Below are positions 673-18,793 of a stretch of DNA of 64,000 nucleotides, piece by piece. The stretch's first letter is position 1. Each line of letters begins with the position of its first letter. The translations under genes were made by a program, and so were the position numbers. Location of the stretch: positions 53,128 to 117,127 of the forward strand of contig CAZAXR010000039.1 in the NCBI GenBank assembly GCA_964489185.1, in the 5' to 3' direction. Under the pieces are notes generated by a model. It ran no database searches. It worked only from the letters and a program-made list of their open reading frames with translations, and was not told the origin of the DNA. Source of the stretch: an uncultured Steroidobacteraceae bacterium. Its GTDB lineage: Bacteria; Pseudomonadota; Gammaproteobacteria; Steroidobacterales; Steroidobacteraceae.

Positions 673-1311
673 ATGCGGACGTCAGTTATTGTTCGGAGCG
701 TGCTCGCGGCGGCGGCCCTCGCGGCCCCAATGCTCGCTACCGCCGAATCCAACTTCCAGACCGGCGCCGGGGCCCTCACGGCCACCGCGCACGTGGACTT
801 TCAGATCACGATTCCGAAGTTCCTGTTCCTGCGCGTCGGCGCGGGCACGGGCACCGCGGCGGGCGGCTTTGCCACCAACGCCACGGTCGACCAGATCACC
901 TGGGCTCCGACGTCCGCGCAGGTCGGTAACAGCACCGCGCTCGCAGGCACCGGCGGTGACCTGACCGGCGGGGTCGAGACCGCAGTGGTCGTGGGCAACA
1001 ACGGTAACGTGACGTTCAGCTCCACCACCACCGGCCCGCTGAACGACGGCGCGGGCGACACCATCAGCTACACTCAGATCAAGACGACGCAGAGCGCCAA
1101 TTCCACTCCGACCGTGCTGGCCCCGCCGGCCCTGGCCGACGGTGCCACGACCAGCACGACGCTCACCGCGGTCGCCAAGATCGTGCAGCAGGATGCCAAG
1201 TGGGCCTACTCGTACCTGAACACCACGGTGCCGCCGGCGGGCACGTACGGTGGCGGCGGCGCGGGTAACGTCGGCGCCGGTCGCGTGACGTACACCGCGT
1301 CGGTGCCCTAA
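673..1311 (+). CDS. Secreted Thr/Gly/Ala/Asn-rich pilin-like subunit A (hypothetical)
   Basis: ORF 667..1311; I prefer ATG 673, 8 nt after AGGA. Signal peptide MRTSVIVRSVLAAAALAAPMLATA|ESN. An alternating-hydrophobic strand (HVDFQITIP) follows the cleavage site. The C-terminus PPAGTYGG...GRVTYTASVP resembles the last beta-strand of chaperone-usher pilins. Confidence 0.6.
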   Translation: MRTSVIVRSVLAAAALAAPMLATAESNFQTGAGALTATAHVDFQITIPKFLFLRVGAGTGTAAGGFATNATVDQITWAPTSAQVGNSTALAGTGGDLTGGVETAVVVGNNGNVTFSSTTTGPLNDGAGDTISYTQIKTTQSANSTPTVLAPPALADGATTSTTLTAVAKIVQQDAKWAYSYLNTTVPPAGTYGGGGAGNVGAGRVTYTASVP

Positions 1312-1341
1312 CTCCGGGCTACCGCGAGCACACGGTGCACT

Positions 1342-2055
1342 ATGTCCCCCGGGAGGCGCGACATGGAGCAGCGCCCCCCGGGGGATGACCGTCGCAGGCA
1401 CCTGCGCACTGTAGGTGCGGCCATGGCGCTCGCGGCCGGCGCTATTACTGCTGCCGCGGGCGCGCTGGCGTTCACCGCCACGCTGACTCCGGCCTCTCCC
1501 AAGACCATCTACCTGCAGGTCGGCAACGGCACCTTCACCGGCGGCAACTACACGCCCATCAAGGGCAACGGTCAGCCGAGCGGCAATCCCGGCAACAACG
1601 CCACCATCAACAAGGTGACGGTGAGTGTCGCCGCGGCGAGCGTCGGCAACGGCACCGCGCAGGCAATGACCACCGACAGCACCGCGGCCAACAGCTTCTG
1701 GGACGGATTCGCCTTCTGCAACCTGCCACAGCAGCTGTACATCGGCGGCTTCTACCGCACCACCGGGGCCGGCGCCGGCAACGTGTCGGTGATCGCCACG
1801 GTTCCCGTCTCGCTCACCGCTGTCGCCGGCGATACGATCCCCTTCTCCCAGATCAGTTGGACCAGCGCTGGCAACGCCGATGCGGGCGCCGAGCCGTTTC
1901 CGGCCGGCAGCTTCTCGGGCACCACGCTCAACGTGGGCAGCATCGGCCAGAACCAGTGGGCCGAGAGCTGCTGGACCTTCTCCTACAAGAACACCGTCGT
2001 TCCAGCCGCGGGCACCTATACGGGCCGCGTGCTGTACACGCTGGCGGCGCCGTAG
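1342..2055 (+). CDS. Secreted pilin-like subunit B, paralog of subunit A (hypothetical)
   Basis: Starts 30 nt after gene A. Leader is ...RRRHLRTVGAAMALAAGAITAAAGALAFTA|TLTP (start 1342 or 1363). It has two Cys (FAFCNL...ESCWTF). The C-terminus VVPAAGTYTGRVLYTLAAP parallels gene A. Confidence 0.6.
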   Translation: MSPGRRDMEQRPPGDDRRRHLRTVGAAMALAAGAITAAAGALAFTATLTPASPKTIYLQVGNGTFTGGNYTPIKGNGQPSGNPGNNATINKVTVSVAAASVGNGTAQAMTTDSTAANSFWDGFAFCNLPQQLYIGGFYRTTGAGAGNVSVIATVPVSLTAVAGDTIPFSQISWTSAGNADAGAEPFPAGSFSGTTLNVGSIGQNQWAESCWTFSYKNTVVPAAGTYTGRVLYTLAAP

Positions 2056-2080
2056 TCGGCGTACCGATAGGCACCGCCGC

Positions 2081-2542
2081 ATGCGTCCGCTTCGTATCCT
2101 CGCATTCTGCATAATCTGGCTCGCGGCCACGGCCGCGCACGCCGCCAGGACCTCGGTCGTCGACGACTCGGGGACGCTTCCCAACAACGCCGCGGTGGCG
2201 ATGCGCTGGCAGCAACAGCAGCCGCGCGGTCCGGGCGCCACCCAGATGGTGGGTACGCTGCTGCTGCGCGTGCGACTCAACGTCACCCCGTGGCTCAAGC
2301 GCGCCGGTCGCATCTACCTGACGCTGCCCGCCCAGCAGCCTGGCGGCATTACGGCCACCTGGACCACGCAGGGACGGCTGCTGCCGGGGCAGGTCGTGTC
2401 CGGCAGCCGCACGCTGGTCTACGCCGGTCCCATCAGCACCCCTTTCATCGAGGACGTCGTGCAGCTGACGGTCACCGTCGACGGCCGACGCATGCTGCAG
2501 AGCTACCCGGTCAACTTCCGCTTTGAAATCGACGAGGACTGA
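2081..2542 (+). CDS. Small secreted protein (153 aa) of the fibre-like operon, unknown function
   Basis: Internal ATG 2081 of ORF 1880..2542 gives MRPLRILAFCIIWLAATAAHA|ARTS, a clean signal peptide. It starts 25 nt after gene B and stops 2 nt before the next gene. Confidence 0.55.
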   Translation: MRPLRILAFCIIWLAATAAHAARTSVVDDSGTLPNNAAVAMRWQQQQPRGPGATQMVGTLLLRVRLNVTPWLKRAGRIYLTLPAQQPGGITATWTTQGRLLPGQVVSGSRTLVYAGPISTPFIEDVVQLTVTVDGRRMLQSYPVNFRFEIDED

Positions 2543-2544
2543 TC

Positions 2545-3336
2545 GTGCGACGCCTGATACTCACCGCCGCCCTGTTCACCGCCGCCTGCACCGTCACCGA
2601 AGTCCGGGCCGACGGGTTTGCCGCCCTGGTATCGCCACCGCGCTTTGAGCTCACCGGCAAGTCCGGTGCCACGCTGCGGCAGGTGATCGAGGTCACCAAC
2701 CGCGCGAACACACCGAGCCGCTTCCGGCTGCACACCGCGGACTTCGTGCTCGGCAAGGACTACGGCGCCGCCTTCCACGACGAGCTGCTGCCCGGCAGCT
2801 GCCGCCCGTGGGTGGCGATCGAGCGGCCGCTGGTGTCACTGCCAGCCGGCGCCACCATCCGCTACCGCTTCGAGGTGCAGGTGCCGCAGGAGGCACCCGC
2901 GGGGGAGTGCCGCTTCGCGATCATGATCGAGGCGGACGAGCCCTCGGTCACCAAGGCCGGCGCTGTGCAGCTGCCGATCGTCGGGCGCATCGGCGTCATC
3001 GTCTACGTGAGCGTTGGGAATGCCACCCCGCAGCTCGAGGTGTTTGGTCCGGAGGTGATCACGCTCAACGGCCAGCGTCTGCCGGCGGTGCGCGTGCACA
3101 ACTCCGGCAATGCGCACACGCGCCTGAGCGGGTTCCTGACCGGCAAGGATGCCGCCGGGCGCAAGTACGACTTCACTCCGTCCGACTTCCCGATCCTGCC
3201 CGGCGAGGAGCGCGAGATCTTTTTCACGCCCTCCACTGCCGATAACCCGACGCCGACCCTGACCTTCCCGGTCACCGTGCAGGGGACCCTGGAATGGGCC
3301 GACCAGCGCACCGATCTCGACGAGCGCTTCAATTGA
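2545..3336 (+). CDS. Periplasmic PapD-like (two Ig-like domains) chaperone candidate
   Basis: GTG 2545 with GAGGA upstream. Signal peptide MRRLILTAALFTAACTVTEVRA|DG. The N-domain pattern LVSPPRFELTGKSGATLRQVIEVTNRANTPSRFRLH and the second-domain pattern LPAVRVHNSGNAHTRLSGFL...ILPGEEREIFF both match pilus chaperone sequence patterns. The mature length is about 240 aa. Confidence 0.55.
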   Translation: MRRLILTAALFTAACTVTEVRADGFAALVSPPRFELTGKSGATLRQVIEVTNRANTPSRFRLHTADFVLGKDYGAAFHDELLPGSCRPWVAIERPLVSLPAGATIRYRFEVQVPQEAPAGECRFAIMIEADEPSVTKAGAVQLPIVGRIGVIVYVSVGNATPQLEVFGPEVITLNGQRLPAVRVHNSGNAHTRLSGFLTGKDAAGRKYDFTPSDFPILPGEEREIFFTPSTADNPTPTLTFPVTVQGTLEWADQRTDLDERFN

Positions 3337-5387
3337 AAGCGCGCGCAGCACGCGCCCTCAGGCGGGCGGCGTGCGGCGGTGTGCTCGCGGCGGCGCTGCT
3401 AGCGGGGACGGGCGCGCGCGCCCAGACCCCACCCAGCAGCGCCCCACCGGCGGCATACGAGGACCGCCTGATCGGCGGCGGCGCGCTGTCGCCGGACATC
3501 TCCAGCGGCGACTATTACAGCAGCAGCGACACGAGCGGCCTGGCGCGCTCGCTGCGTGTGGATGGGCTCGTGAGTGTGTTGACCCAGGAGGGAGCGAACG
3601 CCGCACCGACGCTCCACGAGAACGGCATGGTGTTCGACACCCAGTGGGAAACCCGGGCCTACGGCACGTGGTCCGCGGACGGTGCGGTGCGCATCGGCAG
3701 CGACGACGATCGTCTCGGGACGGGCACCTCCCATGGCTCGTTCGTGCTGCATGAGCGCGGCATGCCCTTCGATGACGGCTGGCAGGCCGACAACGCCCTC
3801 GGCGACCTCAACGCACCCCTCATCAACCTGGCGCGCACCCAGCCGCGCTTCGTGCTCTCCTCGGGCACCATGCTCGGGGCGGAGACCGAATGGCGCGGAC
3901 CGTCGGGAGCGCAGATCGTCGCCGGTGGCGGCGAGCCCGGCATCTACGGCGGCATCAAGGTACCGACCTTCGACACGCTCGGAGGCTCGACCGCGACCGT
4001 GGGTGCGCAGTGGTCGCCCGACCCGCATTGGTCAGTCGGTGGGGAGTACGCCGGGGCGCGCGACGCCAACATCTACTTCCAGCCGCTGGAGTCCACGCTG
4101 CTGCCGCCGACGGTGGCCAACCAGCGCATCTCATCCAACACCGGGCTCGTGAGCACCGCCTGGGCGGACGGCGGCAACCGGGCGCAGCTGAACCTGATCG
4201 ACGGCACGCTGGACGGCAACAGCAATGCCTTCGGCGTATGGGCCGATGCCTCGCACACCCATGGCGCTGTAACGCAGTCGTTCGGGGCCTTCCGCATCGA
4301 TCCCAATCTCGCCTGGGGCAACCAGCTGATCACGAGCGACGTCGAGGGCGGCTACTACCGCGTCGGCTACCAGAGCCGGCGCTGGACCGCCGACGCCGGT
4401 GTCGATGAGGTGCGGTCGGTATCCGGCAACGGCGCCAACAGCACCTTCCTGAACGGTGACGCCCGCTACCAGCTGTCGCGTGACTGGGGCATCGGCAGCG
4501 TCGCCAACGTGCTGCTGACGAGCGACGGCAGCCACAACACCTCCTGGTCGCTGGAGGGCTACGTGGATGCCATCAACCGCTACGGCAGCGGTCGGGTGCA
4601 GCTCGATTACGCCACCGACCCGCTCACCCAGGACGCCAGTATCACGGTGCAGCAGGACTGGACCACCCGCCCGGGTTTGCGCCTCGCCACCAGCGTCTCG
4701 CTCGACCGCGTACACACTGGCGCAGCGCCCGGGCTGCCCCAGGAGGACAGCACCATCGTGCGACTGGCCGCTTACGGTGGCGGCGACCTGACCGCACGAC
4801 TGTCGCTCGACGGCAGCGTGCAGTGGGCCGATGCCGTGCAGGGACGCGCCGCGCCGACTACCGCCGCTGACGTGACGCTCACTTACCAGATGGCTCGCTC
4901 CTGGGGGCTGCTATTCAGCTTCTATGAGAGCCGTGTCGGCTCCTGGACGCCGCTCGTGGTGACCTCGCCGCTCACGCCGCCGGTGCCGACCCCGCAGCCT
5001 TCGCAGGGCCAGCGTGGATTCTTCCTCACCCTGCGCTACCAGTCGGCGAGCGGCCTGCACTTCGTGCCGCTCGGGGGCATGCCGGGCATGGGGTCCGGGC
5101 GGCTGACGGGAGTGGTGTATCTCGACAGCAACGAGAACGGCCGCTTCGATGCGGGCGAGACCGGAGCGGCGAACGTCACCGTGATTCTCGACGGCCGCTT
5201 CTCGACGCGCACCGACGCCAACGGGCGCTTCGACTTCCCAGCCGTGGCCGCGGGCCACCATGTGCTCACCGTGCAGGGCGACAACCTGCCGCTGCCGTGG
5301 GTACTCAGTCACGAGGGGCGCACCGAGGTGGAGGTTGGCACGCGCGACCGCGTCGACGTCAACATCGGCGCGCTGCGCATGAAGTGA
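3333..5387 (+). CDS. Large secreted protein: predicted outer-membrane beta-barrel with C-terminal Cna-B/CarboxypepD_reg-like domain (usher-analog candidate)
   Basis: TTG 3333 overlaps the stop of the previous gene (TTGA) and gives MKARAARALRRAACGGVLAAALLAGTGARA|QTP. The body has alternating aromatic/Gly-rich stretches typical of barrels (WSVGGEYAGARD, YYRVGYQSRRWTADAG). The tail is GRLTGVVYLDSNENGRFDAGETGAANVTVILDG...TDANGRFDFPAVAAGHHVLTV. Confidence 0.55.
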   Translation: MKARAARALRRAACGGVLAAALLAGTGARAQTPPSSAPPAAYEDRLIGGGALSPDISSGDYYSSSDTSGLARSLRVDGLVSVLTQEGANAAPTLHENGMVFDTQWETRAYGTWSADGAVRIGSDDDRLGTGTSHGSFVLHERGMPFDDGWQADNALGDLNAPLINLARTQPRFVLSSGTMLGAETEWRGPSGAQIVAGGGEPGIYGGIKVPTFDTLGGSTATVGAQWSPDPHWSVGGEYAGARDANIYFQPLESTLLPPTVANQRISSNTGLVSTAWADGGNRAQLNLIDGTLDGNSNAFGVWADASHTHGAVTQSFGAFRIDPNLAWGNQLITSDVEGGYYRVGYQSRRWTADAGVDEVRSVSGNGANSTFLNGDARYQLSRDWGIGSVANVLLTSDGSHNTSWSLEGYVDAINRYGSGRVQLDYATDPLTQDASITVQQDWTTRPGLRLATSVSLDRVHTGAAPGLPQEDSTIVRLAAYGGGDLTARLSLDGSVQWADAVQGRAAPTTAADVTLTYQMARSWGLLFSFYESRVGSWTPLVVTSPLTPPVPTPQPSQGQRGFFLTLRYQSASGLHFVPLGGMPGMGSGRLTGVVYLDSNENGRFDAGETGAANVTVILDGRFSTRTDANGRFDFPAVAAGHHVLTVQGDNLPLPWVLSHEGRTEVEVGTRDRVDVNIGALRMK

Positions 5388-5405: not shown

Positions 5406-5795
5406 TTACTCGACCACCGAGGACTGGATCGCAATCCCCGCCTTCAGCACGCTCGTGACCGTGGTGCCGGCGGCGACTTCCAGGAGGCGGGTGCGCTGTT
5501 CGACAGTCAGCGGCTTGGCGAAGGACAAGCGCCGCTCGATGTGATCGCGGCCCGCAGCGTCGCGCGTCCAGCGCAGCCCGACGGTGATCCTGCCGAGGGG
5601 CCAGTCGTGCTGCGCGGCGTGCCGGCGCAGCGCCACCGCAGTATCGGAGCCCAGACTCGCCAGCAGCAGCTCGCGCGGGGCGAGGCCGGCGTCGCTGCCG
5701 CCGGCGGCAACCGGCTCGTCCGCCGTCAGATGATGATGGCCGGAGACGATCTGCTGAACATGCTGATGTTCATTGATTACGGTCACGTAGGCCAT
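5406..5795 (-). CDS. OsmC family peroxiredoxin-like protein
   Basis: MAYVTVINEHQ...HLTADEPVAAGGSDAGLAPRELLLASLGS fits the OsmC pattern (DEP..GG.D.G..P.ELLL). The start at 5795 is preceded by GGGGAGAA. Confidence 0.75.
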   Translation of the reverse strand: MAYVTVINEHQHVQQIVSGHHHLTADEPVAAGGSDAGLAPRELLLASLGSDTAVALRRHAAQHDWPLGRITVGLRWTRDAAGRDHIERRLSFAKPLTVEQRTRLLEVAAGTTVTSVLKAGIAIQSSVVE

Positions 5796-6819
5796 TGCCA
5801 GGTTCTCCCCCGGACGTGCGCTCACGCCGCGCCCAACGTGCCTGGGCGTAAATGCCGGCGTGCGACAGCCGTCCGAGCATGCTGCGCGCGATGCTGCTGA
5901 CGCTCAAGCCGGTCGCATCCTCCAGGCGGTAGGGTGTGCCCTCGAGGATCGCGGCCGCGGCGCGCAAGCCGCTGCGCACCGCCGGTCCGATGCCCTCTCC
6001 CAGGTCGCGCGTAGCGAGCCCCGCGGCATCGCCGGTGATGAAGGCATTGTCGCGCCGCGCGACATCGACGCGCCCGCGCAGATAGTAGCTGTACCCGGTG
6101 GGGTCGTAACGTGCGCCCGGGGCGAGAGCGCCGTCGAGCTTAGCAGCGAGTTGCGCCCAGTGGGTGCGGATGTCCTGCGCACGCGCTTTCAGCCGCTCGG
6201 CAAGGGCGCCGATGCCGACGTTGAGCCAGCCACGCTCCTTGGGCACGTACCAGGAATAGCCCGGCAGGCCGTGCTCGAAGAACCACAGGTGGCAGTCCGC
6301 GTCCTTCCAGTCGTATTGAATCTCGTGTTCGAGCGTCACGATCTGCAGCTCGCTGGCACGCGGATTCAACTCGCGGAACAGCTCGCGGTATACCGGGCAG
6401 CGGGTGCCGCCGGCCCCGATCAGGTGGCGGCAGCGGTACGCGCCGTCGATCACGTAGCCGCCCCCGTCCGCGACGATGTGGCGCACGTTGTGCACCTCGA
6501 GCGGCGCGCCCGAGCGCTGCAGCAGCCACGCATCGAACTCGTAGCGGCGGATCGAGTGCTGCACGCAGGGCACCGACACGTTGAGCTTACCCATGTGCAG
6601 GCGCAGCCGCGGGAAGGTGAGCAGCCGGTGCGGGTAAGCCGCGATGTCCATGCCCAGCTCGCGCACCACTTCCGGGGTGATCCAGCCGGCGCACAGCTTC
6701 TGGCGCGGAAAGGGCTCGCGGTCGAGCACCAGCACGTCGGCGCCGGCGGCCGTGAGCTTCCAGGCGGCGCTGGAGCCGGCGGGGCCGCCGCCGACGATGA
6801 GCACGTCACAGCTGCGCAT
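5770..6819 (-). CDS. FAD-dependent oxidoreductase (geranylgeranyl-reductase family)
   Basis: The N-terminal dinucleotide fold is CDVLIVGGGPAGSSAAWKLTAAGADVLVLDRE. The C-terminal GD motif is FITGDAAGLATRDLGEGIGPA. Confidence 0.8.
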   Translation of the reverse strand: MRSCDVLIVGGGPAGSSAAWKLTAAGADVLVLDREPFPRQKLCAGWITPEVVRELGMDIAAYPHRLLTFPRLRLHMGKLNVSVPCVQHSIRRYEFDAWLLQRSGAPLEVHNVRHIVADGGGYVIDGAYRCRHLIGAGGTRCPVYRELFRELNPRASELQIVTLEHEIQYDWKDADCHLWFFEHGLPGYSWYVPKERGWLNVGIGALAERLKARAQDIRTHWAQLAAKLDGALAPGARYDPTGYSYYLRGRVDVARRDNAFITGDAAGLATRDLGEGIGPAVRSGLRAAAAILEGTPYRLEDATGLSVSSIARSMLGRLSHAGIYAQARWARRERTSGGEPGNGLRDRNQ

Positions 6820-11771: not shown

Positions 11772-12530
11772 TCAGGCCCTGAGCTGACCGAAGTACACGA
11801 GCGTCTGGTAGGGAAACTCGATGCGGCCGTCGCGCGCGTGCCGGGCAAACACCTCGCGCAGGCCCGCGAGCATCGGCGCGTGCTGCGGATGCCCCGGCTC
11901 GGGCGCATAGGAGGACGACATCAGGCGCCCTTCGAGCCCTGCAAAGTCAAGGATCTGCTGATTGGGGAAGGTCGCGAGCTGCATCGTTCCGCCGAAGTAC
12001 CCGCGCATGCTCGTCTCGTCCGCACGGCTCGCCTTGATGGCGGCGTACTCGGCCGCGCAGCGCATCAGCAGCGCCTCGTAGTCGGCAAGGAACGCTGTCG
12101 CCTGCGGCGGGCGCTCGTTCCAGAGCAGCGCACCCCAGCCACCCGGTCGCAGCACGCGCAGTGCCTCACGCCGCGCGCGCGGTACGTCGAACCAGTGAAA
12201 GGCCTGGCCCGCGACGATCAGATCGATGCTCGCGGCCTCCAGCCCGGTCGCCTCGGCGCTGCCCTTGACACTTGCGAACCCTGGCGTGCGCGCGAGGCGC
12301 GCCTCACAGGCCGCGCGCATCGCGTCGTTGGGCTCTATGGCCAGGGACCGTGCACCGCGCTCCAGCAGCAGCTCGGTGAGGATGCCGGTGCCCGCGCCGA
12401 CATCTGCGACTACCGCCCCCGGGGCCAGACCGCAACGCGCCTCCAGCAGATCGATGGCGGCGCGCGGATACCCGGGGCGACAGCGGGCATAGTTGTCGAC
12501 GCGGGTGGAAAAGCGCTCGGACGGACGCAT
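11772..12530 (-). CDS. Class I SAM-dependent methyltransferase
   Basis: The start MRPSERFSTRVDNYARCRPGYP is at 12530. Motif I is VADVGAGTGILTELLLERGARSLAIEPNDAM. Confidence 0.8.
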   Translation of the reverse strand: MRPSERFSTRVDNYARCRPGYPRAAIDLLEARCGLAPGAVVADVGAGTGILTELLLERGARSLAIEPNDAMRAACEARLARTPGFASVKGSAEATGLEAASIDLIVAGQAFHWFDVPRARREALRVLRPGGWGALLWNERPPQATAFLADYEALLMRCAAEYAAIKASRADETSMRGYFGGTMQLATFPNQQILDFAGLEGRLMSSSYAPEPGHPQHAPMLAGLREVFARHARDGRIEFPYQTLVYFGQLRA

Positions 12531-12674
12531 CAGCTGCCCCGGTCCGCGCGGCCGTGCGGCTGTACTGGCCGCGCGCCGACACAGTGCCGTCCGGCCTGCA
12601 TACGCGCGTCTCTCCATAAAGGCATACGGACACGGTAGCGTATCCCTGTGACAATCGCACCGCTGGAGTCTTCC

Positions 12675-13829
12675 ATGTCAGATCCCTTCACGCGCATCGA
12701 GACGAAGCTGGTGCACGCCGGCGAGCCGTCGCCGCGTATCGCCGGCGCGGTGGAAATGCCGATCTTCCAGTCGGCGACCTACGAGTACGCCGGCGAAGGC
12801 AGCTACGATGACGTGCGCTACCTGCGCCTCAACAACACGCCCAGCCAGCTGGCGCTGCACGCCAAGCTGGCGGCGCTCGAGGGCGCCGAAGCCGCGTTGG
12901 TCACCGCCAGCGGCATGGCGGCGATCTCCACCACGCTGCTCACCGTGCTCACGCCAGGTGACCACCTGCTCGCCCAGCGCTGCCTGTACGGGGGCACACA
13001 CGACCTGCTGACCCGGGAGTTCCCGCGGCTCGGCATCGCGGTCGACTTCATCGACGCCGGCCGGCCCGACACCTGGGCCGCGCAGCTCAAACCCAGTACG
13101 CGCGCCATCTACGTGGAAGCGATGACCAACCCGCTGCTGGAGGTCGCGGACCTGCCGGCGGTGGTGCGCTTCGCCCGCGCGCATCGCCTCACCTCGATGA
13201 TCGACAATACCTTCGCCAGTCCGGTCAATTATTGCCCGATCGAGGCTGGCTTCGATCTCTCGCTGCACAGCGCCACCAAATACCTGAACGGACACTCGGA
13301 TATCGTCGCCGGCGCGGTCGCCGGCACGGCCGAGACCATCGAGCGCATCCGGCACAAGGCCAACCATCTCGGCGGCGCGCTCGATGCGCACGCCGCGTTC
13401 CTGCTGAAGCGGGGCCTGAAGACCCTGGCGTTGCGCGTGCGCTATCAGAACGAGAGCACCCTGCGGATTGCGCAGTTTCTCGCCGCTCAGCCGGCCGTGG
13501 TGCGCGTGAACTACCCCGGCCTGGAGACCCACCCGCAGCACGCGCGCGCCCGGAGCCTGTTCGCCGGCTGCGGCGGGGTGCTGAGCTTCGAGCTCGACGG
13601 TGGGGTGCAGCGCGCCGAAGCCTTCGCGGCGCGGCTGCGCATCCCCATCGTGGCGCCAAGCCTCGGCGGGGTGCACAGCCTGCTCACCCGTCCGGCCACG
13701 ACATCGCACGCCGGACTGTCCGCGCAGGAGCGCCACAGCCTCGGCATCAGCGATGAGTTGCTGCGCTTGTCGGTCGGCATCGAATCCACCGCGGACCTGC
13801 TGGAGGACTTCCGGCAGGCGCTGCGCTGA
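12675..13829 (+). CDS. Cys/Met-metabolism PLP-dependent enzyme (cystathionine gamma-synthase/beta-lyase/methionine gamma-lyase family)
   Basis: ATG 12675 follows GGAG. The PLP-lysine motif is SATKYLNGHSDIVAG, and the C-terminal motif is LRLSVGIES..DL..D. Confidence 0.85.
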   Translation: MSDPFTRIETKLVHAGEPSPRIAGAVEMPIFQSATYEYAGEGSYDDVRYLRLNNTPSQLALHAKLAALEGAEAALVTASGMAAISTTLLTVLTPGDHLLAQRCLYGGTHDLLTREFPRLGIAVDFIDAGRPDTWAAQLKPSTRAIYVEAMTNPLLEVADLPAVVRFARAHRLTSMIDNTFASPVNYCPIEAGFDLSLHSATKYLNGHSDIVAGAVAGTAETIERIRHKANHLGGALDAHAAFLLKRGLKTLALRVRYQNESTLRIAQFLAAQPAVVRVNYPGLETHPQHARARSLFAGCGGVLSFELDGGVQRAEAFAARLRIPIVAPSLGGVHSLLTRPATTSHAGLSAQERHSLGISDELLRLSVGIESTADLLEDFRQALR

Positions 13830-13888
13830 ATATGCGCAGCAAGGAACGGGTGGCCGAGTGCCGCTCTCAACTGAGATCCTGAGGTCGC

Positions 13889-14827
13889 ATGTCCACCACT
13901 GATTGCTCAAGCACTGCGGCCGTCGCCGCCGCCCCGCCACCTCCCCGTGCCGTTGGCGCGCCCGCGGAATCCGGCTGGCGCACGCCCGTGGAGCTCACGC
14001 TGCTCGGGGCCATCTGGGGCGGCTCATTCCTGTTCATGCGCGTGGCGGCCCCGGACTTTGGCGCCTTCCCGCTGGTCGAAGCACGGCTCGCGCTCGGCGC
14101 GCTGGTGTTGCTGCCATTTCTTTGGCGCGCACGGGCGCAGTTCACCCCGCAGCTGTGGCTGCGCATCGCCGGCATCGCCGCGGTGAACTCGGTGACTCCG
14201 TTCGCGCTGTTCGCGTGGGGAGCCGAGCGTGCGCCGGCCGGCATCGGCGCCATCACCAACGCCATGACCGTCATGTTCACCGCGCTGGTGGCCTATCTCT
14301 TCTTCGGCGAGCGCATCGGGGCGCGGCGCATCATCGGCCTGGTGGCCGGATTCGTGGGCGTCATCATCCTCGCCAGCGGCCGGACCGCCGGACAGAGCGT
14401 GTGGCAGGCGGCACTCGCGGGCACCACCGCCTCGCTCATGTACGGCTTCGGCATCAATCTCGTGCGGCGTCACCTCTCGGGCTACCCCGCCGCGGCGGTG
14501 GCGGCGGCCAACCTCGCCACCGGCGCGCTGCTGCTGGCGCCACTGGCGCTGTACAACTGGCCCCACCACTCGATCGGTGCCGGGTCCTGGCTGAGCGCGA
14601 TCCTACTAGGCGTGCTGTGCACCGGCATCGCCTTCGTCTTCTACTACCGGCTGATCGCACGCATCGGCGCGCCGCGCACCTCCACCGTGACGTACCTGAT
14701 ACCGCTGTTCGGGGTGATCTGGGCGTGGCTGCTGCTCGCGGAGCCGCTCACCCTCAGCATGGCGGCAGCGGGAGCGCTGATCCTGGGCGGGGTGGGATTG
14801 AGCCAGAAGCGCGAAGCGAAGAGCTGA
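13889..14827 (+). CDS. EamA/DMT family transporter
   Basis: The protein has about 10 hydrophobic segments and duplicated EamA-like halves (LLGAIWGGSFLFMRVA... and ...YYRLIARIGAPRTSTVTYLIPLFGVIWAWLLLAEPL). Confidence 0.8.
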   Translation: MSTTDCSSTAAVAAAPPPPRAVGAPAESGWRTPVELTLLGAIWGGSFLFMRVAAPDFGAFPLVEARLALGALVLLPFLWRARAQFTPQLWLRIAGIAAVNSVTPFALFAWGAERAPAGIGAITNAMTVMFTALVAYLFFGERIGARRIIGLVAGFVGVIILASGRTAGQSVWQAALAGTTASLMYGFGINLVRRHLSGYPAAAVAAANLATGALLLAPLALYNWPHHSIGAGSWLSAILLGVLCTGIAFVFYYRLIARIGAPRTSTVTYLIPLFGVIWAWLLLAEPLTLSMAAAGALILGGVGLSQKREAKS

Positions 14828-15598: not shown

Positions 15599-15792
15599 CG
15601 TTGGGCGAGCCGCGGCTCAAGCGCCGTGGCGATTCACCGCCGGTTCAGGGCCGGCGCACAATACTCTTCATCGCACCGGTTTGAACGCGCTCCCGAGCGG
15701 CCCACAATTTTCAGCGCGGGCACCATTTTGCAGCATGCTCGGATTTGAGTTCGTATCACTCCGGTGCGCTCCCTTTCCCTTATCATCGGTAC

Positions 15793-16164
15793 ATGGAAGT
15801 CACCGGCGGCTGCCTGTGCGGGGCGGTGCGTTACTCGATCAGCGCCGCCCCCATCATCACCCGCACCTGCTGGTGCCGTGTCTCCCGAGCGCGGCGCTCA
15901 AAGTCAGCGGCGAAACTCGCGACTACACTCTGCTCGCCGACAGTGGCAATGTGGCGCACCGGCGCTTCTGCCCGGTGTGCGGAACGCATCTGTTCAGCGC
16001 TTCCGAGGCGCGGCCGCATCTGGTGTTCGTGCGCGCCGGCACGCTTGAATGAGCGCGAGCTCGCCCGCCCTGCCCTCACCATCTGGACGAGCAGCGCACC
16101 CAGCTGGGCGTATTTTGACGAGCGCATTCCGCAGGTCGAGCGGCAACCGCCACCCGCGGCCTAG
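15793..16164 (+). pseudogene. GFA-family (glutathione-dependent formaldehyde-activating enzyme-like) gene, frame-disrupted
   Basis: The family signature is split over two frames. MEVTGGCLCGAVRYSISAAPIITRTCWCR is in frame 1. ALKVSGETRDYTLLADSGNVAHRRFCPVCGTHLFSASEARPHLVFVRAGTLE* is in frame 3. ERELARPALTIWTSSAPSWAYFDERIPQVERQP is back in frame 1. Removing one A at GAATGAG (about 16046) restores GTLDERELAR. Confidence 0.65.
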
Positions 16165-16886
16165 GGAGACGGCAAACCCAGAGCGTGCCGCAGCTCGGCC
16201 GCGGTCAGCAGGCGCGTGTACACCGGGGTTCCGACATCAAACTCCCGCGCTTTCGCCAGCGGCCCGACCACCACCGGCTCAAACCCGGCGTCTTTGACCA
16301 GGCGCTGTGCCACCGCCAGCGCTTCCGGGTCATCACCCGCGAGCGGAATGGCATACGGCGTGCCGTGACGGTGCGCCTCGTTGCGCAGGTCTCCGGAGTT
16401 GATGGCGTTGAATGCGCGCACCAGCCGCACTCCCGGCAGAAATTGCGCCGACGCCACGCCGGTGCCTTCGCGCCGCGCCTGCAGCGCCATGTCGCCGTCG
16501 CGCTGCGGGTAGGGATTGCCGGTTTCCAGCACGATCTTTCCGGCCAGCTCCGCTTTCAGGTCACGCCCGACCTGCGGCAGCGCCGCATAAGGCACGGAAA
16601 TCAGCACCACATCCCCGAAGAGCGCTGCCTCGCGTGGAGTCCCCACGCGGGCCGCCGGGCCGAGCGACTGTGCCAGAGCCCGAAGCTCATCGGGATGACG
16701 CGAGGACAGCAACACCTGATGCCCCGCCTTCACCCACAGTGCCGCAAGCGTGCCGCCGATGTGGCCGGTCCCGATGACACCGATCTTGAGCGGCCCTGGG
16801 ACGGCAGCCGGCGGTGCCGCCGCAGCGGCGAGCGTCGCGAGCGCGAGCGCAGCCCCGAGTGCATTCAGCAGATGTGTGCGGGTCAT
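16161..16886 (-). CDS. NADP oxidoreductase, F420-dependent-type Rossmann protein (NpdG/PF03807-like) with N-terminal hydrophobic leader
   Basis: MTRTHLLNALGAALALATLAAAAAPPAAVPGP is followed by LKIGVIGTGHIGGTLAALWVKAGHQVLLSSR, a dinucleotide-binding fold. Confidence 0.7.
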   Translation of the reverse strand: MTRTHLLNALGAALALATLAAAAAPPAAVPGPLKIGVIGTGHIGGTLAALWVKAGHQVLLSSRHPDELRALAQSLGPAARVGTPREAALFGDVVLISVPYAALPQVGRDLKAELAGKIVLETGNPYPQRDGDMALQARREGTGVASAQFLPGVRLVRAFNAINSGDLRNEAHRHGTPYAIPLAGDDPEALAVAQRLVKDAGFEPVVVGPLAKAREFDVGTPVYTRLLTAAELRHALGLPSP

Positions 16887-17072
16887 GTAGGCGAGAACTC
16901 CATGATCGCCGATGAGCCCGGTGAGCTTGAACAGGGCGGCGCGCCGCACGCCCAGACAGCCGGTGTCGGAATGTCAGCCGGCGCACCGCGACGCCGGCAC
17001 CTCGGAATCGGCGGCCTCGCCCGTCGCTATCGCTGTGACGATCGCGCCCGGGCCGCAAAAGCTGTGCCTCCG

Positions 17073-17276
17073 CTACTTGCGGCGCCGGGCTCCGGAGCGC
17101 TTAGCAGCTCTGAAGGAAATTCCGCTGCGCATCGCCTTCTGCTGGACCGCAGCAGCGGTGCGCCCAAGCTTCTTGGCCACCTGACTGGTCGGTGTTCCCG
17201 CCTTCGCGAGCGCCTTGAGGGTTTGCATTTCACGGGCGCTCCACGATGCGCCGTCGTTCGGTGGTCGTCTTGCCAT
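17073..17276 (-). CDS. Small basic Myb/SANT-like HTH protein (67 aa), hypothetical
   Basis: ATG 17276 lies 7 nt after GGAG. The sequence MARRPPNDGASWSAREMQTLKALAKAGTPTSQVAKKLGRTAAAVQQKAMRSG has a W-x-x-x-E...L helix-turn-helix pattern and a basic tail. Confidence 0.4.
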   Translation of the reverse strand: MARRPPNDGASWSAREMQTLKALAKAGTPTSQVAKKLGRTAAAVQQKAMRSGISFRAAKRSGARRRK

Positions 17277-17989
17277 CACTCTGCTCCGCAAATCATCACC
17301 CAACGAGGGGGCGGGTTGGCGATCATACACCGATCAGTAGACCAGCGGACACCCTGGTACGTTCCGTAACATGTTGGAAGTGAGGCGCGTTGGTAACGCG
17401 CAAGCGCCACGCTCCCGCAGACCAACTTGTAACTTCTGTGTGACCGCACATTCGGCGCCGAGTTTCAAGTCCGCATCGCGCCCGCGCGCGCCAACGGCGG
17501 TGTTTGTTCAGCGTGCGTCGGTGCTCGCCGACAGTGCCCCGTCCGTCGGCACGCAGCCGCAGCTACTGCACGATGGCGTCGGCCATTTGTGGATGAAGTG
17601 AGCAGAAAAAGCGGCAGATTGAAGCGGAAAGAGAAGCTCGCGCTCGTGTCATCAGCGCTCGAAACGTCGAGGCTGAACGCCGCGTGCGACCGGTATCCGT
17701 TTGTCCAGGTCACGGTCGAGCCTGACTCGAGCCGTTGTTCAGAGGTCTGCGCGAGCGTGAGCGTGCTCAGGGCCGCAAAGCGGCCGTGGGCCCCGCGAGG
17801 TGTTGGTCGTAACAATGTCCGTTAGTGAGCGGTGCGCGCCTGAACGCAGCGTGAGCGGATGCTTCAGCGCGCTGGCGGGCCTCAGCGTCCGAGCCGGGAA
17901 GCACTACCCGCCGCGGGCCGCCGACCGATCGTAGGCGGGCCCGAGTGGAGGGAACTGTTCCAGCGCGGCAGAGCGTAGTGCCGGGCCGC

Positions 17990-18793
17990 CTATCCCCTGG
18001 CATCGCGCGCGCCGAGATCGCGCAGCAGACTCACCAGATCCTGCAGCTCCGTCCAGCCGGTGTCGGAGACCGCGCAATACTCCACGTTCCCCAGCGGCCA
18101 ACACGCGATGTGATAGCCATTGCGCGTCGTCTGCTCCGGCAGGCGGTGGCTCACACCAGCCCAGCTGAACACGTTGATGATGTGCGGGCCGTGTTCGTAG
18201 ACGACCACTGCCGCGCGATGCCCGTCGAAGTAGTCTGCGCGGCCACCCACCAGACGATAGCCCTGCGCGGCGAAGTCAGCCACCACGGGTGACACGTCGG
18301 CGTGGCCCGCGAACCACGGCTTCACCGTGTGTCGGTCGGTGGAGACCACGTCGGTGAGATGCGTCGGCATGAGCGAGCGCACATGTGCTGCGACCAGATC
18401 ATCGAGCAGTGCCTGTGGAGCCGCGGGTGACATCAGGAACAGGAACCACGCCGCCACCGCGGCGCACGCGGCCGCGGCGAGGCCGGTGGCCGTTCCCGCC
18501 CAGAACGGCGCCCGCGGCCGCCACGCTGCCCGCCGCGCCCACGGCGTTGCGCGCGCCGCGCGCCGCTCGACGACGCTTTCCGCATCGAGGCAGTGCGTTA
18601 CGCGCGCGCGCAGCTCATGCGGGGCGTGCTCGGGGGGTGCGCTCCGCAGTAGCTCGCGCGCGCGCTGCAGATCCTGGCGCAGCGCTCGACACTCGGCGCA
18701 GCGCTCGAGATGGCGCTCGAGGTCCGCGCTCGACAGCGCATCGAGCTCGCCGTCGAACCACGCCTGGACACGCAGTGACTCAGCGCATTGCAC
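17990..18793 (-). CDS. Anti-sigma factor (zf-HC2 type, single TM, periplasmic C-terminal domain)
   Basis: The GTG start overlaps the sigma gene by 14 nt. The N-terminus is CAESLRVQAWFDGELDALSSADLERHLERCAECR (the H-x3-C-x2-C motif). The TM segment is AGTATGLAAAACAAVAAWFLFL. Confidence 0.8.
   Translation of the reverse strand: MQCAESLRVQAWFDGELDALSSADLERHLERCAECRALRQDLQRARELLRSAPPEHAPHELRARVTHCLDAESVVERRAARATPWARRAAWRPRAPFWAGTATGLAAAACAAVAAWFLFLMSPAAPQALLDDLVAAHVRSLMPTHLTDVVSTDRHTVKPWFAGHADVSPVVADFAAQGYRLVGGRADYFDGHRAAVVVYEHGPHIINVFSWAGVSHRLPEQTTRNGYHIACWPLGNVEYCAVSDTGWTELQDLVSLLRDLGARDARG

Follow-up and report, generated by a model that had tools for sequence, protein, structure and literature searches.

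Chaperone–usher pili are the textbook case of fibres assembled across the outer membrane without energy input, and their recognised classes have homologous chaperones and ushers. The WxL/Csc clusters of Gram-positive bacteria combine one protein of the WxL-interacting protein (WxLIP) type with two related secreted partners and one small accessory protein. More than 91% of the known WxL sequences occur in Firmicutes (PMC9772566), and Gram-negative bacteria and Proteobacteria are nowhere mentioned in the paper on WxLIP (PMC10599100). Here we analyse a unit of five genes, at positions 673–5387 of a 64,000-nucleotide stretch of DNA (the window) from an uncultured Steroidobacteraceae bacterium (assembly GCA_964489185.1, contig CAZAXR010000039.1, positions 53,128–117,127), which appears to keep the chaperone–usher logic with different parts, namely a WxLIP-related chaperone-like protein (gene 4), a non-usher barrel (gene 5) and subunits outside the known families (genes 1 and 2). 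Our favoured reading, to which we assign a probability of about 0.5, is that the unit encodes a chaperone–usher-like assembly or export module, built from different protein families, which would expose the products of genes 1 and 2 at the cell surface, probably in the form of a polymer linked through strand exchange.

The unit resembles the classical (Fim/Pap), alternate (CFA/I) and archaic (Csu/CupE) chaperone–usher operons in its gene order, in which subunits are followed by a candidate chaperone with two immunoglobulin-like (Ig) domains and by a candidate outer-membrane barrel. At the level of protein families the resemblance ends, since none of the five products gave a significant match to PapD_N (PF00345), PapD_C (PF02753), Usher, PapC_N, PapC_C, Fimbrial or SCPU, nor any Pfam or NCBIfam match to curli (CsgG/CsgA) or Fap (FapF) components. 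These scans bear out a preliminary description of the locus, read from its sequence, in which no PapC/FimD, spore-coat-U, curli or Fap signature had been recognised. The five families themselves are absent from Pfam (2025) and NCBIfam (June 2026), and the source databases name these proteins "hypothetical", "SdrD B-like domain" or, by transfer, "fimbrial chaperone". Full-text literature searches returned no prior description of the system.

Layout and conservation of the five-gene cassette

The forward strand of 673–5387 contains five co-directional, tightly packed open reading frames (ORFs), all with signal-peptide-like N-termini; the gene numbers below are also used for the products.

660–664, + strand: ribosome-binding site AGGAA, 8 nt 5′ of the gene 1 ATG, read from the sequence
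673–1311, + strand: gene 1, first gene of the operon, 212 amino acids (aa), about 188 aa mature; secreted subunit candidate (ORF)
1342–2055 (probable start 1363), + strand: gene 2, 237 aa (230 aa from 1363); second subunit candidate (ORF)
2081–2542, + strand: gene 3, 153 aa, about 130 aa mature; predicted secreted protein (ORF)
2545–3336, + strand: gene 4, 263 aa; two-Ig-domain periplasmic candidate (ORF and AlphaFold2 model)
3333–5387, + strand: gene 5, 684 aa; putative outer-membrane protein, TTG start (ORF)

The intergenic gaps are 30, 25 and 2 nt, and the stop of gene 4 overlaps the start of gene 5 in a TTGA at 3333–3336. The packing given in the preliminary description agrees with these coordinates and needs a single correction, in that gene 2 more likely starts at the ATG at 1363 than at 1342 because a GGGAGG lies 7 nt upstream of it; the first gap thereby becomes 51 nt. 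The same description had credited every product with a Sec signal peptide, and a basic n-region, a hydrophobic core and an AxA-type end can indeed be read from the sequence of all five N-termini. As the DNA has a GC content of 69% and long ORFs occur in every frame, ORF length alone is no evidence of coding here. The third-position GC of the five frames is 0.87–0.89 (0.88 in gene 1), and all five products have protein-level support in the form of thousands of homologues or hundreds of family representatives.

Conservation of the unit was examined by scanning a single genome for each GTDB species with two gene 4 peptide patterns, which yielded 283 stretches with relatives, the best 80 of which were compared. 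These best 80 are all metagenome-assembled genomes, assigned to Steroidobacteraceae, Steroidobacterales, Nevskiaceae and unclassified Gammaproteobacteria or Proteobacteria; the scan patterns are clade-specific, and the taxonomic range is thus a lower bound. The five genes stood in identical order in 80/80 of these Steroidobacterales-related loci, except where a contig ends, with amino-acid identities of 29%–88%, mostly 45–85%. Only 25–27 of the 80 loci keep the two downstream genes, which shows that the five-gene unit is conserved independently of its neighbourhood.

Beyond this clade, a gene 5 profile search of 1.84 billion cluster representatives retrieved a family of 443 representatives at E<1e-30. 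Among the best 150 gene 5 relatives, 92 were full-length (600–820 aa) and 25–57% identical to gene 5. Three distant relatives (25–29% identity) could be traced to their contigs, and each was found within the same cassette:

L084 (GC 57%): gene products of 208, 166, 220, 159, 287 and 760 aa
L087 (NCBI assembly, GC 52%): gene products of 221, 220, 212, 168, 294 and 748 aa
L091 (GC 70%): gene products of 214, 219, 158, 265 and 701 aa

In L084, hhalign confirmed the orthologues of genes 1, 2, 3 and 4 with probabilities (Prob) of 99.8–100 (gene 3: 99.8). The L084 cassette adjoins an IS1-type transposase, a type IV secretion system coupling protein and a relaxase (1122–2270, 15740–18283), and that of L091 lies between a phage-type integrase and a relaxase/ArdC (612–1637, 12122–14556). 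Because distant copies keep such company, we conclude that the cassette, which is widespread in Proteobacteria, is horizontally mobile and travels on integrative or conjugative elements. A plasmid tblastn search with gene 5 gave no match. The co-conservation as a unit, on which the preliminary description had made its proposal depend, extends from the 80 loci to all three distant contigs. One member of the 90%-identity cluster to which the L091 barrel belongs is a protein of Variovorax sp. TBS-050B, an isolate in culture, and all five genes of the unit are present on a metagenome contig of that cluster; with a gene 5 homologue in a cultured strain, the system is experimentally approachable.

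Chaperone, barrel and subunit candidates

Gene 4 has 3762 homologues, some of them named "fimbrial chaperone" by the Joint Genome Institute (JGI). It gave no significant Pfam or NCBIfam match, no PapD_N or PapD_C match at E<=1 and, as a single sequence or as a family profile, no match in PDB sequence searches. An AlphaFold2 model built with 52 homologues (predicted local distance difference test, pLDDT, 83) has two beta-sandwich domains, and its top Foldseek matches in the PDB are the WxL-interacting protein of Enterococcus faecium (9i25_C and 9i1y, E ~1e-8), followed by CfaA, YadV, CsuC, EcpB, FimC, CupB2, PapD and Caf1M (prob 1.00, template modelling (TM) scores 0.39–0.57). WxLIP and every chaperone–usher chaperone class were thus matched, at E-values of 1e-8 to 1e-5.

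At the sequence level, plasmid tblastn with gene 4 returned Gram-positive and Deinococcus proteins only, one of which is annotated "DUF916 domain-containing protein". The hhalign comparison of the gene 4 family reached Prob 97 (E 5e-11, 214 columns) with the Deinococcus WxLIP-like protein and Prob 96 (E 1e-9, 199 columns) with an Arthrobacter DUF916 protein, covering both domains, as against Prob 6 only with FimC. Additionally, 19/52 family members match WxLIP_PGBD (PF06030), all below the curated cut-off (best E 0.018); PapD_N appeared in 1/52 relatives (E 0.23) and PapD-like (PF14874) in 4/52. On the strength of the two high Prob values, the low one with FimC and the 19 sub-threshold matches, gene 4 is homologous to WxLIP-like proteins and is probably to be placed by descent with the WxLIP (DUF916/DUF3324) family and not with PapD, its predicted fold being PapD-like; membership in the PapD family itself was rejected on the hhalign comparison with FimC. 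The preliminary description had proposed a PapD-type chaperone folding as two Ig-like domains. The model and its matches to pilus chaperones uphold the fold, and the proposed PapD-type sequence has to be replaced by homology to WxLIP.

Gene 4 differs from WxLIP in lacking the C-terminal transmembrane anchor: its chain ends at residue 263, straight after the last strand of domain 2, and it should therefore be soluble in the periplasm. The feature that we propose as a strand-donating element lies at the end of domain 1:

2944–3015, + strand: gene 4 predicted hairpin and last strand of domain 1 (..AGAVQLPIVGRIGVIVYV), residues 134–157, with alternating conserved hydrophobic residues (AlphaFold2 model and alignment)

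Here the model drops to pLDDT <50 at 135–138 and 141–146, beside a confident strand at 148–157, and P144, G147, R148, I149, I152, V153 and Y154 are invariant in the family alignment. The predicted strand insertion by the WxLIP hairpin parallels the donor-strand complementation that is carried out by the PapD G1 strand. The hairpin of gene 4 corresponds to a disordered hairpin of WxLIP, for which a transition to an ordered strand, completing the beta-sandwich of the bound WxL protein, is predicted (PMC10599100). Near the mature N-terminus, an invariant PPRFE motif resembles the conserved YFDLK strand of WxLIP. The invariant Arg of this motif presumably falls where PapD has Arg8. C86 and C122 form an invariant Cys pair.

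Gene 5, which has a 95%-identical homologue likewise of 684 aa, was modelled by AlphaFold2 with a pLDDT of 70 overall and of 80–93 across most of the barrel; its N- and C-terminal regions were poorly modelled. Three parts can be distinguished:

3423–3542, + strand: N-terminal segment, residues 31–70, YxDRxI...GxxRxLR; conserved, unstructured, expected to be periplasmic (alignment and AlphaFold2)
3546–5051, + strand: predicted barrel, residues 72–573, 26 long strands, short loops, no inserted plug domain (DSSP on the AlphaFold2 model)
5100–5384, + strand: C-terminal SdrD-B/Cna-B-type beta-sandwich, residues 590–684, containing VYLDSNENGRFDAGE (DxNxNGxxDxxE) (Pfam and PDB profile)

In the modelled barrel, turns of 2–5 residues alternate with loops of 3–22 residues, and as the longest connection between strands is 22 residues there is no inserted domain. 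The even strand count implies that the N-terminal segment and the C-terminal domain both lie on the periplasmic side. Y42, D44, G69 and R72 are nearly invariant even in an alignment at 25% identity, and the N-terminal segment (pLDDT <50) might, speculatively, be a docking site or a plug. The C-terminal domain matches SdrD_B (E 5e-7) and CarboxypepD_reg (E 8e-7) in Pfam, and it is the sole part for which the gene 5 family profile found matches in the PDB (B domains of SdrD and UafA, E 2e-9).

Foldseek placed MtrB (6r2q_B, E 4e-10, TM 0.42–0.44) first among the structural matches of gene 5, then FimD and SlpA, with PapC lower and TonB-dependent receptors and porins among the weaker matches. MtrB, the sheath of the MtrCAB porin–cytochrome complex, shares with the model the count of 26 strands, but gene 5 has no sequence similarity to it. 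LptD is a second 26-strand barrel, and the lumens of MtrB and LptD are filled by the separately encoded MtrA and LptE, respectively, which suggests a possible role for gene 3. Unlike the MtrB and LptD systems, the unit contains no cytochrome or Lpt gene, and those systems in turn lack a Cna-B domain and a chaperone-like partner. No match to Usher (PF00577), PapC_N, PapC_C, MtrB_PioB or any porin or receptor family was found in gene 5 or in ten relatives of 25–30% identity. Usher homology was rejected on hhalign against FimD, in which the close and the diverse (Neff 5.7) gene 5 profiles reached Prob 0.2–0.3 (diverse: 0.3). The single sequence found no match in the PDB, and the diverse profile found no barrel or usher there.

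The modelling thus points to a large barrel of a new sequence family, with a pore as wide as or wider than that of an usher. Like an usher, the model combines a large barrel with a periplasmic C-terminal beta-sandwich; it differs in having 26 strands instead of 24, in lacking both the plug that ushers carry between strands 6 and 7 and a globular N-terminal domain, and in having a single Cna-B-type C-terminal domain in place of the two C-terminal domains of ushers. The 684-aa barrel with a Cna-B/CarboxypepD_reg-like sandwich suggested by the preliminary description is recovered in the model and in the Pfam matches, and its expectation that 3333–5387 would match no well-characterised unrelated family agrees with the Pfam, NCBIfam, PDB and FimD comparisons. 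Its suggestion of a pore smaller than that of an usher has to be withdrawn: the protein is shorter, because it lacks the N-terminal domain, the inserted plug and the second C-terminal domain, and the predicted barrel is not narrower.

Genes 1 and 2 are paralogous (hhalign Prob 98.7, E 4.5e-16) and rich in Thr, Ala and Gly, as the preliminary description had noted in speaking of two paralogous low-complexity proteins. Common to both are a conserved N-terminal strand with alternating hydrophobic residues, IPKxLYLRVGTG / APxTVYLQVGVG, VGNGTA, GDTIxFxQI and W-x-[YF]-x-Y, and both terminate in AGTY..G.V.YT...P with an invariant Y-T-x-x-x-P end. Gene 1, which lacks Cys, has 2372 homologues, all of them devoid of Pfam domains and of informative names, and carries a conserved strand-like segment in which small and hydrophobic residues alternate:

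781–813, + strand: gene 1 segment ATAHVDFQITI, residues 37–47, near the mature N-terminus (68 orthologues)

A37, A39, F43 and I47 show little or no variation among the 68 orthologues (pattern A-x-A-x-V-x-F-x-I-x-I), and this segment may be a donor or a complemented strand. Gene 2 ends in AGTYTGRVLYTLAAP and has invariant C126 and C210 across 66 aligned orthologues; together with the Cys pair of gene 4 this fits an oxidising compartment. Gene 3 (77-sequence alignment) always stands between the subunits and the chaperone-like gene, and the idea that it is a truncated paralogue of gene 1 or gene 2 was rejected, as sequence comparison shows no relation.

The number of subunit genes varies between loci, with gene 1 duplicated in tandem in L007 and a third subunit-like gene present in both L084 and L087:

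L007, 3316–3945 and 4167–4802: tandem pair of gene 1
L084, 5442–5942: extra subunit-like gene, 166 aa
L087, 3453–5559: subunit-like genes

The extra gene of L084 has only the AH(V/I)DFxIxxP motif (AHIDFAIVVP) in common with gene 1. The wider spacing seen in L007 with its duplicate recurs in L013, L015 and L018.

The 68 gene 1 and 66 gene 2 relatives gave no significant match to Fimbrial, SCPU or another fimbrial-subunit family, the sole fimbrial-subunit match being P_gingi_FimA in one gene 1 relative at the chance level of E 0.068. Weak Phage_nozzle matches in 21/66 gene 2 relatives (best E 0.001) are probably compositional. Gene 2 has a long signal peptide (window 1342–1470) with the Arg-rich n-region DDRRRHLRTVG. 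Many of its orthologues carry RR followed by hydrophobic residues (LRRALVG, LRRTFG), similar to a Tat motif, and some have no RR; a weak NCBIfam match of gene 2 to "formate_TAT" has an E-value of 0.018.

Proposed assembly route and competing explanations

The favoured reading draws on the variable paralogous secreted subunits, the two-Ig protein with a hydrophobic hairpin and the wide predicted barrel with periplasmic appendages, as well as on the translational coupling of the genes and their inheritance as one mobile cassette. Under this reading, genes 1 and 2, and perhaps gene 3, would cross the inner membrane via Sec, and soluble gene 4 would capture the subunits in the periplasm. Its hairpin and the last strand of domain 1 would insert into the presumably incomplete beta-sandwich of a subunit, a step modelled on the predicted WxLIP–WxL binding and on the binding of pilins by PapD-type chaperones. 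The complex may then dock on gene 5 at its two periplasmic parts, the N-terminal tail and the Cna-B-like domain at the C-terminus, and the subunits would traverse the wide barrel to reach the surface, where they would most likely form a short strand-exchange polymer. Gene 3 might serve as an adaptor, a terminator or a plug of the lumen. The "pilin-like" subunits and the "fibre" of the preliminary description are inferred features in this reading.

Several points weigh against this reading. Genes 1–3, family members and profiles included, match no Pfam, NCBIfam or PDB family, and the evidence on the module consists of sequences and, for genes 4 and 5, AlphaFold2 predictions. All Foldseek TM-scores of gene 5 are low (0.38–0.44), and its best structural match, MtrB, is a protein-holding sheath and not a translocon. 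With no plug in the predicted barrel, the gating of a 26-strand pore is unaccounted for. Within WxL clusters, which are the nearest characterised relatives, WxLIP is thought to remain bound in a non-polymeric surface complex and not to act as a recycling chaperone (PMC10599100).

The explanation that competes best, which we consider unlikely, is that the unit forms a static, non-polymeric surface complex, equivalent in Gram-negative bacteria to the WxL/Csc clusters. In it, genes 1 and 2 would keep gene 4 as a permanently bound structural partner, gene 5 would be an outer-membrane anchor or sheath, as MtrB holds MtrA and MtrC, and gene 3 would be the equivalent of the small LPXTG protein of WxL clusters. 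Such a complex would agree with the closer relation of gene 4 to WxLIP than to PapD in structure and sequence, with the rank of MtrB among the barrel matches, and with the part count, which in WxL clusters equals genes 4, 1, 2 and 3. The C-termini of genes 1 and 2 (..TYTGRVLYTLAAP) also recall the second WxL motif, and actinobacterial partners end in ..TYTATLTHSVL, a resemblance and nothing further. That genes 1 and 2 are WxL domains, as this C-terminal motif had led us to suspect, is nonetheless unsupported at the sequence level: Pfam WxL (PF13731) matched 0/134 members of the gene 1/2 family at E<=5, hhalign against three actinobacterial WxL-like proteins was negative (Prob 0.4–2.2), and the W/Y motifs are spaced by about 30 residues as against 68–106 in WxL domains. 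Moreover, the loss in gene 4 of the transmembrane anchor that fixes WxLIP, the lack of an LPXTG motif in gene 3, the presence of a dedicated predicted 26-strand outer-membrane barrel and the proteobacterial hosts all set the unit apart from these clusters, and subunit paralogues that vary in number are rather a trait of pilus operons.

A role in uptake or substrate processing, with gene 5 as a large substrate-specific channel and genes 1–4 binding a polymeric nutrient, seems improbable. The csc (WxL) clusters of Lactobacillus were first proposed to serve in carbohydrate utilisation (title of PMC1534035), and TonB-dependent receptors and porins occur among the weaker barrel matches, as noted above. 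Ig-like and Cna-B-like domains are common in glycan-binding proteins, and we count this in favour of uptake. Against it, the unit is not accompanied in the 80 loci or in L084, L087 and L091 by any conserved glycoside hydrolase, transporter, regulator, TonB-box or plug domain, porin and receptor families are unmatched in Pfam, and a plug-free barrel of 26 predicted strands would be far wider than nutrient channels.

More improbable still is a very divergent true chaperone–usher system, in which gene 5 would derive from an usher by loss of the N-terminal domain and the plug, and genes 1 and 2 would be divergent archaic-type or alternate-type pilins. In its favour are the subunit–chaperone–pore order, FimD and PapC among the best barrel matches, the many chaperone–usher chaperones in the Foldseek list of gene 4 and the few PapD_N and PapD-like matches of the gene 4 relatives; it is contradicted by the lack of usher families in gene 5 and its ten distant relatives, by Prob 0.3 for the diverse profile against FimD, by a PDB profile search finding the Cna-B domain only, by a model with 26 strands and no plug insertion, by Prob 6 of gene 4 against FimC compared with 96–97 against WxLIP-like proteins, and by fimbrial-subunit families being undetected apart from the chance-level match given above.

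Returning to the favoured assembly module, we hold only tentatively, at somewhat less than even odds, the wider conclusion that it constitutes a new outer-membrane assembly or secretion pathway of Proteobacteria, with a strand-donating chaperone of WxLIP stock, a non-usher 26-strand translocon and a new surface fibre of soil bacteria spread by integrative and conjugative elements. If a surface structure is assembled, either the coupling of donor-strand-type assembly to an outer-membrane pore would have arisen on more than one occasion, or the WxL systems of monoderms and the pili of diderms would share a deep evolutionary link. A function would also be given to a few thousand "hypothetical proteins", mainly from soil metagenomes and at least 283 GTDB species, and a new family of large barrels would be at hand, whose gating without an inserted plug would have to be explained.

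Related plasmid clusters and the flanks of the locus

Clusters with WxLIP-like genes were also compared on plasmids of Deinococcus and of Actinobacteria:

L082, 3935–9508: Deinococcus sp. NW-56 plasmid cluster, WxLIP-like protein, then a 190-aa and a 1013-aa protein
L081, 4161–5813: actinobacterial plasmid DUF916-type locus
L089, 4299–5876: actinobacterial plasmid DUF916-type locus
L090, 4308–5909: actinobacterial plasmid DUF916-type locus (the three being from Arthrobacter and Streptomyces)

The Deinococcus cluster resembles the five-gene unit in that its WxLIP-like protein, the one matched by gene 4 at Prob 97, likewise has no transmembrane helix and precedes, in this order, a small protein and the large 1013-aa protein with SdrD_B/CarboxypepD_reg domains. 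It differs in that the large protein has the Cna-B-type domain, and not the barrel, in common with gene 5; comparison ruled out the Deinococcus neighbours as homologues of genes 1–3 or of the gene 5 barrel. This cluster of a diderm may follow the logic of the five-gene unit in another version. In the actinobacterial loci, the DUF916-type protein is annotated as DUF916 in two Arthrobacter records and as "hypothetical" in Streptomyces. A secreted protein of 170–180 aa, with a weak WxL match (E 9e-4) and the end ..TYTATLTHSV, is encoded 5′ of the DUF916-type gene, and these loci represent the WxL cluster, outside Firmicutes, in a minimal form of two genes.

The window contains no second copy of the module. 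An antisense ORF of 543 aa (682–2313, − strand) overlaps genes 1–3 and is one among many long spurious ORFs. Downstream, on the opposite strand, lie genes for an OsmC-like protein, a flavin adenine dinucleotide (FAD) oxidoreductase, a cyclopropane-fatty-acid synthase and an S1/P1 nuclease, in keeping with the ordinary housekeeping flanks mentioned in the preliminary description. As listed, the OsmC-like ORF (5406–5825) and the FAD-oxidoreductase ORF (5770–6819), both on the − strand, overlap by 56 nt (5770–5825); the true start of the OsmC-like gene is probably further downstream, because its OsmC Pfam match begins at residue 43.

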